Both the position numbers and the translations under genes were made by a program. Shown here in pieces: positions 12,974 to 64,000 of a DNA stretch of 64,000 bases; the first letter of the stretch is position 1, and each line of letters starts with the position of its first letter. The notes under the pieces were generated by a model. That model saw only the letters and a program-made list of their open reading frames with translations. It was not told where the DNA came from and made no database searches. The DNA lies in assembly GCF_044324875.1 (NCBI RefSeq), contig NZ_CP172185.1. The stretch is one strand, 5' to 3'. Source of the DNA: Escherichia coli (GTDB lineage Bacteria; Pseudomonadota; Gammaproteobacteria; Enterobacterales; Enterobacteriaceae).

Positions 12974-14659
12974 TTGAAGAAGGTTTGGCTTAACCGTTAT
13001 CCCGCGGACGTTCCGACGGAGATCAACCCTGACCGTTATCAATCTCTGGTAGATATGTTTGAGCAGTCGGTCGCGCGCTACGCCGATCAGCCTGCGTTTG
13101 TGAATATGGGGGAGGTGATGACCTTCCGCAAGCTGGAAGAACGCAGTCGCGCGTTTGCCGCTTATTTGCAACAAGGGTTGGGGCTGAAGAAAGGCGATCG
13201 CGTTGCGTTGATGATGCCTAATTTATTGCAATATCCGGTGGCGCTGTTTGGCATTTTGCGTGCCGGGATGATTGTCGTAAACGTTAACCCGTTGTATACC
13301 CCGCGTGAACTTGAGCATCAGCTTAACGATAGCGGCGCATCGGCGATTGTTATCGTGTCTAACTTTGCCCACACTCTGGAAAAAGTGGTTGATAAAACCG
13401 CCGTTCAGCACGTAATTCTGACCCGTATGGGCGATCAGCTATCTACGGCAAAAGGCACGGTAGTCAATTTCGTTGTTAAATACATCAAGCGTCTGGTGCC
13501 GAAATACCATCTGCCAGATGCCATTTCATTTCGTAGCGCCCTGCACAACGGCTACCGGATGCAGTACGTCAAACCCGAACTGGTGCCGGAAGATTTAGCT
13601 TTCCTGCAATACACCGGCGGCACCACAGGTGTGGCGAAAGGCGCGATGCTGACTCACCGCAATATGCTGGCGAACCTGGAACAGGTTAACGCGACCTATG
13701 GTCCGCTGTTGCATCCGGGCAAAGAGCTGGTGGTGACGGCGCTGCCGCTGTATCACATTTTTGCACTGACCATTAACTGCCTGCTGTTTATCGAACTGGG
13801 TGGGCAGAACCTGCTTATCACTAACCCGCGCGATATTCCAGGGTTGGTAAAAGAGTTAGCGAAATATCCGTTTACCGCTATCACTGGCGTTAACACCTTG
13901 TTCAATGCGTTGCTGAACAATAAAGAGTTCCAGCAGCTGGATTTCTCCAGTCTGCATCTTTCCGCAGGCGGAGGGATGCCTGTTCAGCAAGTGGTGGCAG
14001 AACGTTGGGTGAAACTGACTGGACAGTATCTGCTGGAAGGTTATGGCCTGACCGAGTGTGCGCCGCTGGTCAGCGTTAACCCGTATGATATTGATTATCA
14101 TAGTGGTAGCATCGGTTTGCCGGTGCCGTCGACGGAAGCCAAACTGGTGGATGACGACGACAACGAAGTACCACCGGGTCAACCGGGTGAGCTTTGTGTC
14201 AAAGGACCGCAGGTGATGCTGGGTTACTGGCAGCGTCCGGATGCTACCGATGAGATCATCAAAAATGGCTGGTTACACACCGGCGACATCGCGGTGATGG
14301 ATGAAGAAGGATTCCTGCGCATTGTCGATCGTAAAAAAGACATGATTCTGGTTTCCGGTTTTAACGTCTATCCCAACGAGATTGAAGATGTCGTCATGCA
14401 GCATCCTGGAGTACAGGAAGTCGCGGCTGTTGGCGTACCTTCCGGCTCCAGTGGTGAAGCGGTGAAAATCTTCGTAGTGAAAAAAGATCCATCGCTTACC
14501 GAAGAGTCACTGGTGACTTTTTGCCGCCGTCAGCTCACGGGCTACAAAGTACCGAAGCTGGTGGAGTTTCGTGATGAGTTACCGAAATCTAACGTCGGAA
14601 AAATTTTGCGACGAGAATTACGTGACGAAGCGCGCGGCAAAGTGGACAATAAAGCCTGA
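12974..14659 (+). CDS. fadD: Long-chain-fatty-acid--CoA ligase (acyl-CoA synthetase)
   Basis: ORF 12908-14659; start assigned to TTG at 12974 ([14 protein letters not shown]...) to give 561 aa; AMP-binding motif ([12 protein letters not shown]) present. Confidence 0.93.
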
Positions 14660-14679
14660 GCGTTAAGTCAGTCGTCAGA

Positions 14680-14704
14680 CGCCGGTTAATCCGGCGTTTT
14701 TTTT
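14680..14704 (+). terminator. Rho-independent terminator of fadD (cgccgg ttaat ccggcg followed by T8)
   Basis: GC stem-loop followed by a run of eight T seen in sequence 20 bp after the fadD stop. Confidence 0.7.
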
Positions 14705-22108: not shown

Positions 22109-22816
<708 letters not shown>

Positions 22817-22823
22817 TACTTTC

Positions 22824-22843
22824 AGCCCGCGTTGTCGCGGGCT
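22824..22843 (+). terminator. Possible terminator hairpin after leuE (agcccgcg ttgt cgcgggct)
   Basis: 8-bp inverted repeat seen in sequence; weak T tract. Confidence 0.35.
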
Positions 22844-22898
22844 TCCCATCTGTAATCCTCCCTGATTCTTCTCTGATATGGTGCTAAAAAGTAACCAA

Positions 22899-22922
22899 TA
22901 AATGGTATTTAAAATGCAAATT
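22899..22922 (+). promoter_or_regulatory. yeaR-yoaG promoter region with putative NsrR operator (aaatggtatttaaaatgcaaatta)
   Basis: AT-rich imperfect palindrome about 70 bp upstream of the yeaR ATG; yeaR-yoaG is a known NsrR/NarL-regulated operon; site assignment is an inference. Confidence 0.4.
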
Positions 22923-22988
22923 ATCAGGCGTACCCTGAAACGGCTGGAATAAACCATTTTCAGCGCATTCACCGAAGGAGGGAAAAGG

Positions 22989-23046
22989 ATGCTGCAAATC
23001 CCACAGAATTATATTCATACGCGCTCAACGCCTTTCTGGAATAAAC
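22989..23046 (+). pseudogene. yeaR: yeaR 5' fragment (codons 1-19), interrupted by the IS66-family insertion
   Basis: ATG 22989 with GGAGG RBS; MLQIPQNYIHTRSTPFWNK then the frame runs into the IS; the remainder of yeaR resumes in frame at 25496. Confidence 0.85.
23039..23046. repeat. Target-site duplication GAATAAAC (left copy) of the IS66-family insertion
   Basis: Identical 8-mer flanks both IS ends (23039-23046 and 25489-25496). Confidence 0.85.
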
Positions 23047-23083
23047 GTAAGCGTACAGCGAGGGCCGTATTGACGGGGATGTG

Positions 23084-24622
23084 TTATTCAGCTGGCAGTG
23101 CTATGCGCCACGGAAGCAGTTCGCTGACCCGGTTGACCGGCCAGTCTGCTATGACGCCAAGCACATGGCGAAGGTAGCTTTCTGGATCCACGTCATTCAG
23201 TTTGCACGTCCCTATCAGGCTGTACAGTAGCGCTCCCCGCTCACCACCATGGCCAGAGCCGAAGAACAGGAAGTTTTTACGACCCAGACTTACCGCCCGC
23301 AGGGCATTTTCAGCGATGTTGTTGTCGATTTCCACCCAGCCATCGTTCGCATAGTACGTCAGTGCCGGCCACTGGTTAAGTGCGTACGCGAACGCCTTCG
23401 CCAACTCTGAGTGTCGCGACAGGGTCTTCATCTTTTCACGCAACCAGCTTTCCAGGGATTTCAACAGCGGTTTCGTTTTTCGCTGACGTTCAGCAAGCCG
23501 CTGCTCTGCCGGCATTCCCCTTATATCCGCCTCTATGGCGTACAACTGACCGATCTGCTCCAGGGCTTCTTCCGTCAGTGCTGACGGGATGCGGACGTGC
23601 ACATCGTGGATCTTTCGGCGGGCATGAGCCCAGCAGGCAGCTTCCGTTATCCCACCATTGCGATACAGCTCGTTGAACCCGGCGTACGCATCCGCTTGCA
23701 GCACACCGCTGAAGCAAGCAAGATGAGTCTGCGGATGGATGCCTTTTCTGTCCGGGCTGTAAGCGAACCACACTGCAGGTGCCAACGCTGACCCGGCATT
23801 GCGGTCATCACGAACATACGCCCACAACCGCCCGGTCTTCGTCTTCTTATTACCCGGCATCAGTACCTGGACCGGGGTATCATCGGCATGGAGTTTGCCG
23901 TCAGTCATGACATAGCCATGAAGCGCCTCTTCCAGCGGAGACAGCAGCCGGCAGCATGCATCCACCCAGCCCGACAGCAGTGAACGGCTCAGCTCCACAC
24001 CTTGCCGGCCGTATATTTCTGACTGGCGATACAGCGGGGTGTGCTCTGCATACTTCGAGGTCAGCACGCGGGCCAGCAGCCCCGGTCCGGCGATACCCCG
24101 CTCGATGGGCCGCGAAGGTGCAGGTGCCTGCACGATGGCATCGCACTGAGTACAGGCATGTTTTTCCCGTACCGTCCGGATAACCCGGAAGGCGCTACGC
24201 ATCAACTCCAGCTGTTCGGCGGTATCCTCGCCCAGATAGCTCAGTGAACCGCCGCAGTTCGGGCAGCACGGCGCCGCAGGCAACAGTCGCTTTTCGTCAC
24301 GGGGTAGTGATTCAGGGAACGGCTTACGGATGCGGGTCTGACGCAACGGACGCTGTACTGCCGGGTCATACACCCTACCAGTCAGCGTATCGCTCTCTTT
24401 CTGAAGCTGGTTCAGATCGGCTTCCATTTGTGCGATACGGCGGGAGACTTTTTCGGAACGACTGCCGAAGTTCATCCGGCGGAGTTTATCCAGCTGCGCC
24501 TGCAGATGGTCTATTTCGCGCTCCCGGTTGCTCAGCTTTTCCTGCAGGGCGTGGATCAGCGCTTCCTGTTCGGCCAGGCGCTGTTTCAGCAGGAAGATGT
24601 CGTCAGAAGAGATGTCGTTCAT
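23084..24622 (-). CDS. IS66-family transposase TnpC (orf3)
   Basis: 512-aa ORF with N-terminal coiled-coil/leucine zipper, zinc-finger-like CxxC pair and DDE region typical of IS66 TnpC. Confidence 0.9.
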
Positions 24623-24671
24623 AAGCCCGTATTTTACCGGGCTTATTCTGTGACAACCAGGATAAAGAGAT

Positions 24672-25019
24672 TTACAGCATGGTCAGGGAGGTCAGCAGCC
24701 GCTTAGGCTGTCGCCAGTCGATACCTTCCAGCAGCATCGCCAGCTGCGCCTGTGTAAGGAACACTTTGCCATCACGGGCTGACGGCCAGGCGAAGCGCCC
24801 ACGCTCCAGCCGTTTGGTCAGGAGGCACAGTCCGTCACCGGTGGACCACAGCAGTTTAACCTGACTGCCGCTGCGGCCCCGGAAAATGAAAACATGGCCG
24901 GACATGGGATCGTCTTTCAGCGCCGTCTGTACTTTCGCAGCCAGGCCGTTGAAGCCATTTCTCATATCGGTGATACCGGCAACCAGCCAAATTTTGGTCC
25001 CGGAAGGTAAAGGGATCAT
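24672..25019 (-). CDS. IS66-family accessory protein TnpB (orf2)
   Basis: 115-aa [30 protein letters not shown]...; start overlaps the tnpA stop (ATGA) as is typical. Confidence 0.88.
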
Positions 25020-25417
25020 CGCTTCAGTTCCTGTATCAGCAGAGTCAGGAGCTTTTCGCTGACATTGCCATTGAAGCGGAGCGTCCCGTGCCGGAACGTT
25101 ACCTCACAGCTGATACTGAGGGTTTCCGGGTCCTCTGCGAGCGATTCTGGCTGTTCGGCAGCTGCATCGAGAGTCACAGGAAGTAGCTGGGGGCTCTCTG
25201 AAGAAGGTAATAGCAGCTTTCCCTCGCGCCATTGTTGTCGCCATTTGAACAACAGATTGGCGTTAATGCCATTTTCAAGAGCAAGTTTTGAGATGGATAT
25301 CCCGGGTTCACAGGAGGCAGCAACGAGCTGCTGTTTAAATTCGGGAGGATAATTAGGGCAGCCTTTTCGCCTGCCGGGAGTCACATTTTTCTGCATATCT
25401 GACACTTTGGTTCCCAC
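25016..25417 (-). CDS. IS66-family accessory protein TnpA (orf1)
   Basis: 133-aa ORF upstream of tnpB within the same element. Confidence 0.85.
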   Translation of the reverse strand: MGTKVSDMQKNVTPGRRKGCPNYPPEFKQQLVAASCEPGISISKLALENGINANLLFKWRQQWREGKLLLPSSESPQLLPVTLDAAAEQPESLAEDPETLSISCEVTFRHGTLRFNGNVSEKLLTLLIQELKR

Positions 25418-25488
25418 TACTTATTTGGTGGACACCACTTTGTCTAATTCGTCAGATTCTGACCAGACGGTTCAGGCTGTACGCTTAC

Positions 25489-25496
25489 GAATAAAC
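25489..25496. repeat. Target-site duplication GAATAAAC (right copy) of the IS66-family insertion
   Basis: Identical to 23039-23046. Confidence 0.85.
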
Positions 25497-25798
25497 AAAC
25501 TGCGCCTGCCGGAATATTCGAACGTCATCTTGATAAAGGAACGCGCCCGGGAGTTTACCCACGCCTTTCCGTTATGCATGGGGCGGTCAAATATCTCGGC
25601 TACCCTGATGAACACAGTGCAGAGCCTGATCAAGTGATCCTTATCGAAGCGGGGCAGTTTGCGGTGTTCCCTCCAGAAAAGTGGCACAACATTGAAGCCA
25701 TGACTGACGATACTTATTTCAACATTGACTTCTTCGTTGCTCCTGAAGTCCTGATGGAAGGCGCGCAACAACGGAAAGTCATTCATAACGGGAAATGA
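25496..25798 (+). pseudogene. yeaR: yeaR 3' fragment (codons 20-119, DUF1971 protein), separated from its promoter and start by the IS
   Basis: In frame with the 5' fragment once one TSD copy and the IS are removed; translation QTAPAGIFERHLDKGTRPGVYPRLSVMHGAVKYLGYPDEH...HNGK; reconstituted length 119 aa. Confidence 0.85.
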
Positions 25799-25801
25799 AT
25801 C

Positions 25802-25984
25802 ATGGGCAAAGCAACGTATACCGTGACCGTCACCAATAACAGCAATGGCGTTTCTGTCGATTATGAAACAGAGACGCCGATGACTTTGCTGGTGCCAGAA
25901 GTGGCGGCTGAAGTGATAAAAGATCTGGTGAATACCGTGCGTTCTTATGACACGGAAAACGAACATGATGTTTGTGGTTGGTAA
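25802..25984 (+). CDS. yoaG: DUF1869 small protein YoaG (60 aa)
   Basis: ORF MGKATYTVTVTNNSNGVSVDYETETPMTLLVPEVAAEVIKDLVNTVRSYDTENEHDVCGW starting 4 bp after the yeaR stop. Confidence 0.85.
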   Translation: MGKATYTVTVTNNSNGVSVDYETETPMTLLVPEVAAEVIKDLVNTVRSYDTENEHDVCGW

Positions 25985-26131: not shown

Positions 26132-26380
26132 ATGGGCATTCTGTCATGGATTATTTTTGGGCTTATTGCCGGTATTCTGGCGAAGTGGATCATGCCAGGT
26201 AAAGATGGTGGTGGATTCTTTATGACTATCCTGCTGGGGATAGTCGGTGCCGTAGTCGGCGGATGGATCAGCACGCTGTTTGGCTTTGGTAAAGTCGATG
26301 GCTTCAATTTTGGCAGCTTCGTGGTTGCCGTTATTGGCGCGATTGTCGTGCTGTTTATCTACAGAAAGATTAAAAGTTAA
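26132..26380 (+). CDS. yeaQ: GlsB/YeaQ/YmgE-family small membrane stress protein
   Basis: 82-aa ORF with two hydrophobic helices (MGILSWIIFGLIAGILAKWIMPG...). Confidence 0.9.
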   Translation: MGILSWIIFGLIAGILAKWIMPGKDGGGFFMTILLGIVGAVVGGWISTLFGFGKVDGFNFGSFVVAVIGAIVVLFIYRKIKS

Positions 26381-40039: not shown

Positions 40040-40165
40040 TGCAAAATGGCATCTGAATCGATCGCAGTTTGGCATTCGAATCGATCATGATTTGGCATCC
40101 ATCTCCGATCACAGTTTGGCATCACAATCGATCACGATTTGGCATGCTTCCGATCATTGATTGGC
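40040..40165 (+). repeat. Left-end multiple terminal repeats of the IS21-family element (5-6 tandem copies of about 22 bp, each with a GATC)
   Basis: Tandem units gatcgcagtttggcattc / gatcatgatttggcatcc / gatcacagtttggcatca / gatcacgatttggcatgc / gatcattgattggcatcc seen in sequence. Confidence 0.65.
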
Positions 40166-40241
40166 ATCCTGCCAGTCACTCCGGGAATTAACTCTTTTCA
40201 CCACAGTCTCCATTGCCGTGTTTAAACCAGTGGAGACGTCA

Positions 40242-41807
40242 ATGTCCAGAAAGAGAAAATCCAGGAGCACTATGGAAACCTGTTTTAAGATCCTTCAGCT
40301 CAAGTTCGACAAGAAGCTGACTAACCGTTGTATCGGACTGACGTTACACATCAGCGCCTCAACCGTTTTTGAGGTTCTTGCCCGCTTCAAAGCCTCTTCT
40401 CTGTCATGGCCATTACCTGCTGATATATCCCATGACACGCTGGAGAAACTCATTTTTCCGCCCAAAGACACCTTTGCATCAGAGCTTGTAATGCCTGACA
40501 TGTTGTACTTCGATACGGAAATGAGAAAACCAGGTGTGACGCGGCAACTGTTGTGGATGGAATACAAGGCACAGGCGGGTAACAAAGCGATGGGATACTC
40601 GCACTTCTGCCGTTGCTACCGGGAGTGGAAAAAAACGCGACGTCTCTCCATGCGCCAGGAGCATCGTGCCGGCGAAAAGCTTTTTATCGACTTCTGTGGT
40701 CCTACGGTTCCTGTTATTAATCCGGACACCGGTGAGATACGCCGCGTGGCAATCTTCGTGGCCGTAATGGGGGCGTCCAACTATACCTACGTTGAAGCGT
40801 GCGAAGGTCAGGACATGATGTCATGGTTAAATGCCCACAGCCGTTGCCTGACCTTCCTGGGCGGCGTACCGAAGCTGCTCATCCCCGATAACCTCAGAAG
40901 CGCAGTGAAAAAGGCCGATCGATATGAGCCTGTCATCAACGACAGTTATCAGGCACTGGCTGAGCACTATGGCACGGTTATCATCCCGGCCCGACCACGC
41001 AAACCTAAAGATAAACCAAAAGCAGAAAACGGCGTCCTCATCGTTGAACGATGGCTTCTTGCCCGCATCCGTAATGAAACCTTCCACACGCTCAGGGCGC
41101 TGAATGCGCGCCTTAGGGAGTTACTGACAGACATGAATAACCGGCCAATGAAGGGGTACGGCAATCAAACCCGTGCAGAACGCTTCCGCATACTGGATGC
41201 GCCAGCACTCTCTCCGCTGCCTCTGGCACCTTATGAATACACGGAATACAAAGCTGTGAAGGTTGGCCCTGACTACCACGTTGAATATGCCCGTCACTGG
41301 TACTCCGTTCCACACGAACTGGTCGGTCAGCGTCTGTCACTGAAGGCGGGGCAGTCGGTGGTACAGCTCTGGCACAAGGGGCAGTGTGTGGCGCAACATC
41401 CGCGCAGCACACATGAATATAAACACACAACCAATCCGCTTCACATGCCAGAGCGCCACCGGCAGCACGGGACATGGACACCGGAACGCCTGATCGAGCA
41501 GGGAAAACGTACGGGCCCGTCCACAGGCCGGGTGGTTGAATCCATGCTGAAGGCAAAACCCCATCCGGAACTGGCTTATCGTGCAGTTCTGGGGCTGCTG
41601 GCACTTCAGAAAAAATACGGCCCGGAACGGCTGGAAAAGGCCTGTTACGTTGCCCTGCACTATAACGCCCCTGACAGACGCTTTATCGACAATCTGCTGC
41701 GTCACCATCGGGAGAACCTGGAGCTTCCATTATCCCGCCAGGGCGAACAACATCCGGCATATGCTTCAGAGCATGAAAACCTGCGTGGTCCGGGCTACTA
41801 CCACTGA
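40242..41807 (+). CDS. istA: IS21-family transposase IstA
   Basis: ORF 40161-41807; start placed at MSRKRKSRSTMETCFKILQLK... (HTH N-terminus followed by a DDE integrase core). Confidence 0.88.
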   Translation: MSRKRKSRSTMETCFKILQLKFDKKLTNRCIGLTLHISASTVFEVLARFKASSLSWPLPADISHDTLEKLIFPPKDTFASELVMPDMLYFDTEMRKPGVTRQLLWMEYKAQAGNKAMGYSHFCRCYREWKKTRRLSMRQEHRAGEKLFIDFCGPTVPVINPDTGEIRRVAIFVAVMGASNYTYVEACEGQDMMSWLNAHSRCLTFLGGVPKLLIPDNLRSAVKKADRYEPVINDSYQALAEHYGTVIIPARPRKPKDKPKAENGVLIVERWLLARIRNETFHTLRALNARLRELLTDMNNRPMKGYGNQTRAERFRILDAPALSPLPLAPYEYTEYKAVKVGPDYHVEYARHWYSVPHELVGQRLSLKAGQSVVQLWHKGQCVAQHPRSTHEYKHTTNPLHMPERHRQHGTWTPERLIEQGKRTGPSTGRVVESMLKAKPHPELAYRAVLGLLALQKKYGPERLEKACYVALHYNAPDRRFIDNLLRHHRENLELPLSRQGEQHPAYASEHENLRGPGYYH

Positions 41808-41823
41808 CAGAAGGAACAACAGT

Positions 41824-42579
41824 ATGAGTGATAACCTGTTAAACAAACTGACCCAACTGAAACTCCCGGCGATGGCCGGGAGCCTGATACGGCAGCGGGA
41901 AACGCCTCAGACCTACGACGAACTGTCGTTCGAGGAAAGGCTGACGCTGCTGGTTGATGACGAGCTTCTGAGCAGGGAAAACAGCCGTGTGGCACGGTTG
42001 AGAAAAAATGCCGGCCTGAAATACCAGGCAACACCGGAAGGGCTGCGCTATCCGGCCTCAAGAGGTCTGCGGGCTGAACAGATGAGAGAACTGCTGAACG
42101 GCCACTACATAACCCACAGGAAAAACCTGCTGATAACCGGTCCGACAGGATGTGGCAAGAGCTGGATAGCCAATGCGCTGGGCGAACAGGCATGTCGACA
42201 GAAACACAGCGTCCGGTACTGTAGAACCGGGCGATTACTGGAACAACTGGCTCAGGGACGTGTTGATGGCAGCTGGCTGAAATATCTGAAACAGTTGCAA
42301 AAAATACAGGTTCTAATCCTGGACGATCTGGGGCTGGAACAGTTAAGTAACGCCCAGTGTAATGACCTTCTGGAGCTCATAGAGGATCGTTACGGACAAA
42401 GCAGCACGATAGTGGTAAGCCAGTTCCCGGTAGATAAATGGCATGGTCTGATGGAGAACCCAACAACAGCAGATGCCATCCTGGACAGACTGGTACATAA
42501 CTCACACCGAGTGGTCCTTCAGGGAGAGTCACTGAGGAAAAATCCCCCGGTAGTGGAAAGCAGCGAAAAAACGCGTTAA
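41824..42579 (+). CDS. istB: IS21-family ATP-binding helper protein IstB
   Basis: Start ATG 41824 (MSDNLLNKLTQLKLPAM...) after an AGGAA-type RBS; Walker A (GPTGCGKS) and Walker B (LILDDLG). Confidence 0.88.
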   Translation: MSDNLLNKLTQLKLPAMAGSLIRQRETPQTYDELSFEERLTLLVDDELLSRENSRVARLRKNAGLKYQATPEGLRYPASRGLRAEQMRELLNGHYITHRKNLLITGPTGCGKSWIANALGEQACRQKHSVRYCRTGRLLEQLAQGRVDGSWLKYLKQLQKIQVLILDDLGLEQLSNAQCNDLLELIEDRYGQSSTIVVSQFPVDKWHGLMENPTTADAILDRLVHNSHRVVLQGESLRKNPPVVESSEKTR

Positions 42580-42678
42580 AAAGCGGTAGAAAAAGTTAAG
42601 TTCCCGGTTGATCGAATGGATGCGAATCGCTGATCGGACTTCGATGCCAATCCGTGATCGAATAGAGCGGAATACGCA

Positions 42679-63028: not shown

Positions 63029-63062
63029 AGGTTCTTTCAACCATCTGATACTGAAGATTTTT

Positions 63063-63081
63063 ATGGCCGGATAAGGCGTTT
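63063..63081. repeat. Half of a REP palindromic unit (GGCCGGATAAGGCGTT) interrupted by the IS3-family element
   Basis: The sequence immediately 5' of the IS end matches the reverse complement of the 3' half of the E. coli REP consensus (...GAACGCCTTATCCGGCC); the other half would lie beyond the window. Confidence 0.45.

Positions 63082-64000
<919 letters not shown>

Follow-up and report, generated by a model that had tools for sequence, protein, structure and literature searches.

Which mobile element has split yeaR in this Escherichia coli chromosome, how did it come to be there, and what is left of the operon for yoaG, the gene that follows? In the window, meaning the whole stretch of 64,000 nucleotides that was analysed, the ORF listing gives the order leuE (22178-22816), the 5′ start of yeaR, three minus-strand ORFs, the remainder of yeaR, yoaG and yeaQ (26132-26380), and leuE-yeaR-yoaG-yeaQ synteny is present. 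In strain CFT073 nitrate co-induces yeaR and yoaG approximately 160-fold, which is consistent with a single operon (PMC5320621), and that paper, as far as its account of the yeaR promoter goes, credits Lin et al. 2007 for activation by NarL and control by NsrR. The best explanation overall, and one held here with high confidence, is that ISEc8 transposed into yeaR and generated a null allele, with yoaG being expected to lose its induction.

What is the element? It occupies 23047-25488 on the minus strand, is complete at 2442 bp, and is 100% identical to annotated copies of ISEc8, a member of the IS66 family. Such 100%-identical copies, on chromosomes and plasmids alike, have the RefSeq label “IS66-like element ISEc8 family transposase” together with tnpA and tnpB, and as copies at 0-1 mismatch carry the ISEc8 annotation, the assignment in an earlier note on this DNA, to an ISEc8-like element of the IS66 family, holds. 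That note also described three ORFs running opposite to yeaR-yoaG and perfect terminal inverted repeats of 13 bp, and the same arrangement is found here. The genes are intact and consecutive, and the ORF listing puts all of them on the minus strand: tnpC (23084-24622), encoding the 512 aa IS66-family transposase, tnpB (24672-25019) and tnpA (25016-25396), which encode IS66 accessory proteins of 115 aa and 126 aa, respectively. Scored against curated NCBIfam cut-offs, the three products are all above them, TnpC with 457 bits for NF033517 (cut-off 180), TnpB with 120 bits for NF033819 (cut-off 50) and TnpA with 97.7 bits for NF047595 (cut-off 74). TnpC has the same sequence as the copy annotated WP_000997962.1, the stop codon of tnpA and the start of tnpB share an ATGA, and the 126 aa given for TnpA follows the RefSeq annotation of identical copies, an alternative 133-aa ORF with a GTG start extending to 25417. 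At the tnpC-proximal end the terminal inverted repeat IRR is GTAAGCGTACAGC (23047-23059) and at the tnpA-proximal end IRL reads GCTGTACGCTTAC on the plus strand (25476-25488); the match is perfect at 13/13 positions and is 18/22 on extension. IS66-family terminal inverted repeats reportedly start with GTAA, and the presence of GTAAGCGTACAGC at both ends fits with this. The G+C content of the element is 56.6% vs 49% for its flanks.

ISEc8 is far from rare. Of the 5,426 complete E. coli genomes 4,229 have some match to the element, and 3,784 records contain one at 99% or more. The copies in other genomes, many of them identical, are at different sites, in up to 46 places per genome, and this, along with the intact ORFs, is indirect evidence that the element may be able to transpose. 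The copies in LH50-c, 135, TUM9803 and 2009C-3133 have 0-1 nt differences from that in the window. A copy from O157:H7 agrees with it in length and termini and is 99.4% identical (15 mismatches, zero gaps), its TnpA and TnpB being identical and its TnpC having five substitutions, Q72R, I98T, S212R, M255L and G457D. ISEc8 as it occurs in O157:H7 and in many APEC, ExPEC and plasmid backgrounds shares with the present copy the 2442 bp length, the GTAAGCGTACAGC termini, an 8-bp duplication and the tnpA-tnpB-tnpC layout with its ATGA overlap; what differs is the insertion site. Of eight other copies examined, every one is 2442 bp long and is bordered by a perfect 8-bp duplication, the duplicated sequences being unrelated, so that the footprint seen in the window is normal for ISEc8. 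Among the nine duplications now to hand no target-sequence preference is evident. Judged by its sequence, then, the element is ISEc8, a described IS66-family member, and its insertion is standard with just the site being new.

How precisely can the entry point be specified? The 8-mer GAATAAAC directly adjoins the element on both sides (left copy 23039-23046, right copy 25489-25496) and is in single copy at the empty site in K-12 MG1655 and 042; the probability of a matching 8-mer at exactly both flanking positions by chance is ~1.5e-5. The contention that the flanking 8-mers are a true target-site duplication is thus well founded. In-silico removal of the element and one copy of GAATAAAC gives a 360-nt yeaR of 119 codons; its product has exactly the sequence of 042 YeaR (WP_000939323.1) and is one residue apart from K-12 YeaR, at position 56 (P vs A). 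The flanks align to the uninterrupted K-12 yeaR-yoaG locus, the reconstituted frame matches that of intact yeaR, and, on comparison with the references, the yeaR fragments are without further lesions. With a perfect duplication and with excision restoring a 119-aa YeaR identical to that of 042, the description of the insertion as clean is borne out. Its placement after codon 19 needs a small adjustment: 19 complete codons do remain, but one more base, the first of codon 20, also precedes the break. The 5′ fragment, which aligns to yeaR of K-12 and 042, accordingly comprises codons 1-19 and that one base (22989-23046, plus strand), and the 3′ fragment codons 20-119 and the stop (25496-25798, plus strand), the latter having neither its own start codon nor its own promoter. 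The best explanation is that ISEc8 transposed into yeaR by way of cuts at GAATAAAC with an 8-bp stagger, the fill-in of which created the flanking duplication.

A separate repeat needs to be distinguished from that duplication. The 11-mer CTGGAATAAAC is natively present twice, in the yeaR leader at 22945-22955 and in codons 17-20 at 23036-23046, as is also the case in K-12 and 042, and because of this the duplicated 8-mer is seen three times in the region. Its first copy, in the leader, has no connection with transposition.

Could the whole arrangement be due to faulty assembly, a misjoin at a repeat having put a copy of the IS into yeaR? The junctions are found nowhere else, as a misjoin would have it, but a misjoin would not make a perfect 8-bp duplication abutting exact IS termini with collinear flanks, and there are eight independent copies of ISEc8 with the same footprint. 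An artefact is, in consequence, extremely improbable, and a genuine transposition of ISEc8 into yeaR is what is considered from here on.

When did it occur? Of the complete E. coli genomes, none (0/5,426) covers either of the two 200-bp junctions, and an exact 38-nt scan with the left junction gave no match in GTDB species representatives. The best matches to the flanks are 99.2-99.6% identical, e.g., 042 and an ST69 strain. The insertion is strain-specific. An exact match to known copies of the IS, a perfect duplication, undamaged yeaR fragments and yoaG, and unique junctions all fit with a recent strain-specific transposition, and the insertion is probably recent; the earlier note had the same opinion, and the absence of both junctions from 5,426 complete genomes, with gene fragments lacking further lesions, now speaks in its favour. 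Collinearity with E. coli 042 extends across the window except for two insertions and the right-hand end, and the IS is the only break at yeaR. A composite transposon or a larger rearrangement was also considered and is ruled out by the 042-collinear flanks and by there being no second ISEc8 copy within the window.

The window has other mobile elements which merit description in their own right. At 40040-42678 an IS21-family element of 2639 bp, with istA and istB, splits yeaE; it has a 5-bp duplication, CGAAG, and its in-silico excision gives a 284-aa YeaE. Near-identical copies of it (99.7-100% identity) are annotated as ISSso4 family, and those examined, using a query with only 10-bp flanks, are in other contexts. 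Just downstream of topB an IS3-family element, IS1397 in the annotation of relatives, extends from ~63058 to 64000, where it is cut by the window end; at this site 042 instead has an Hsp70/J-domain gene pair. Unlike the junctions of ISEc8, that of the IS3-family element is shared with other genomes, being common to a few complete ones, e.g., 23AR0806 with 99.0% identity over the junction. The 64 kb, core chromosome in other respects, has three IS elements from three families. Against the closest complete E. coli genomes the flanks reach only 98.3-99.6% identity, and this, together with the three IS families, points to an IS-rich lineage that is without a representative among the 5,426 complete RefSeq E. 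coli genomes. Of a different nature is the sroD sRNA at 14618-14703 (plus strand; 115 bits); no other Rfam family in the window reaches the gathering threshold.

What can still be made from the split gene? The yeaR allele is null. Traced back from the 3′ fragment, the yeaR frame runs into a stop just within the IS, and the earliest in-frame ATG of that fragment is Met46 at 25574, so neither a full-length nor a fused YeaR can be made. From the yeaR start there is a chimeric ORF of 62 aa (22989-23177, plus strand), in which 19 YeaR residues are followed by 43 that are IS-derived and antisense to tnpC; an exact look-up found no record of its product.

Very little separates the yeaR promoter region from that of K-12, and the stretch 22873-22955 (alignment columns 57-139) is fully identical. 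Within it is a predicted NsrR operator, the 11-1-11 inverted repeat AAATGGTATTTAAAATGCAAATT, and this 23-mer is exactly the predicted NsrR site of yeaR in CFT073 (Table 4 of PMC5320621). The putative operator that had been proposed from the letters alone is therefore sustained as to its identity, with its position being 22900-22922 on the plus strand instead of approximately 22899-22922. A search for the NarL 7-2-7 consensus TACYYMTNNAKRRGTA gave no match within 3 mismatches in 22840-22990; since 22873-22955 is identical to K-12, whichever NarL site K-12 uses there is kept.

With the yeaR promoter on one side of the element and yoaG on the other, what is the likely consequence for expression of the latter? 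The gene (25802-25984, plus strand) is intact with 60 codons specifying a protein identical to K-12 and 042 YoaG, and at the nucleotide level there are 0 differences from 042. The insertion has increased its distance from the yeaR promoter by 2.45 kb. Its start is 3 nt beyond the yeaR stop, and its translation is probably coupled to that of yeaR. The IS genes face the yeaR promoter from the other strand, so that transcripts starting at this NsrR-repressed, NarL-activated promoter would have to traverse antisense IS sequence in order to reach yoaG, crossing ~2.4 kb that would be untranslated past the chimeric ORF. Long untranslated RNA favours Rho-dependent termination. From the antisense untranslated 2.4 kb and the probable coupling to yeaR, it is to be expected that yoaG would lose most or all of its nitrate- and NO-induced expression, and a polar loss of this sort is, going by the layout, the likeliest outcome.

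It may be asked whether the insertion, though real, is non-polar, with yoaG, and perhaps a YeaR fragment initiated at Met46, still being expressed by read-through from the yeaR promoter or from a weak promoter at the tnpA-proximal IS end or the junction. Such an outcome would be helped by yoaG being undamaged with its own start codon retained, and by the plus strand having within the IS just a single weak terminator-like hairpin (25316-25332). Neither the surroundings of the tnpA-proximal end nor the yeaR 3′ fragment itself yielded a sigma-70-like outward promoter, and in a relaxed scan of 25250-25810 no candidate was better than 7/12 hexamer matches, but both the consensus and relaxed scans are crude and insensitive, as they likewise miss the native, activator-dependent yeaR promoter. 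Literature searches on ISEc8 outward promoters and IS66 mechanism gave nothing useful. Against non-polarity are not only the poor score of the best promoter candidate but also the ~2.3 kb of antisense IS past 23177 and the start-less yeaR 3′ fragment, which would go untranslated, and the disappearance of translational coupling with yeaR. Continued yoaG expression is on balance unlikely, and the polar loss of its induced expression is the reading retained.

Is yeaR-yoaG a locus whose loss is tolerated, or one whose loss is favoured? It is in one piece (at least 80% coverage) in 4,964 of the 5,419 E. coli genomes with a match, and, as a rough figure from a spread sample, the uninterrupted locus is missing in ~8% of complete E. 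coli genomes. Three of the other disruptions were looked at. In the E. coli B strain C3029 an IS421/IS186-type element of the IS4 family is at yeaR codon 41 in the motif GGGGTTTACCC. Like the ISEc8 allele, that of C3029 has yeaR split in leuE-yeaR-yoaG-yeaQ context with yoaG intact, but the element family and the site are other ones, and it is apparently present, on a rough estimate, in a few hundred complete genomes vs none for the ISEc8 allele. In STEC367 the same two-gene operon is hit with a different element family and mechanism, an IS200/IS605-TnpB element replacing the last ~11 codons of yoaG to give a 62-aa variant, and yeaR is spared and intact. The STEC367 type of break point is also present in other strains sampled, and perhaps a fifth of complete genomes carry the element at the yoaG end. 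ECO3183 has lost the DNA between yeaR and nimT in an IS4-associated deletion. Independent IS hits in several lineages are consistent with yeaR-yoaG being dispensable.

The repeated hits could be taken to mean that the insertion was selected rather than neutral, loss of YeaR-YoaG being advantageous in some niches, and the ~8% of complete genomes without an uninterrupted locus, the C3029 insertion, the element at the end of yoaG and the yeaR-nimT deletion all have some weight in that direction. Yet the events other than that studied here involve different elements at different sites, and most of the disruptions are probably one ancestral insertion inherited within a lineage. In addition, the IS186-type element has gone into a GGGG...CCCC motif, the usual target of IS186. 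Furthermore, CFT073 yeaR-yoaG mutants had no defect in NO scavenging activity in the single assay reported (PMC5320621), and this is consistent with simple dispensability. Selection for the insertion is accordingly quite unlikely, and the insertion of ISEc8 into yeaR would seem to have been selectively neutral or nearly so.

More radical is the notion of rewiring, in which the insertion alters regulation besides breaking a gene: the strongly nitrate- and NO-inducible yeaR promoter would drive antisense transcription across tnpC of the intact element, and transposase expression, and hence mobility of the IS, would be responsive to nitrosative stress. An alternative is that the repeated disruption of yeaR-yoaG across E. 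coli lineages reflects selection against this poorly understood NO-induced operon. Readings of this kind are very unlikely to be correct.

What does the insertion mean for those dealing with this and related strains? A known element made a standard insertion, and the result is an ordinary strain-specific gene knock-out, the element itself being of no new type. For annotation, yeaR should here be treated as a pseudogene, with yoaG flagged as probably silent under nitrate or NO induction. The ISEc8 allele could be used as a lineage marker, since not one of the 5,426 complete E. coli genomes has it. The lineages in which the operon is disrupted are natural mutants for studying the function of YeaR and YoaG.
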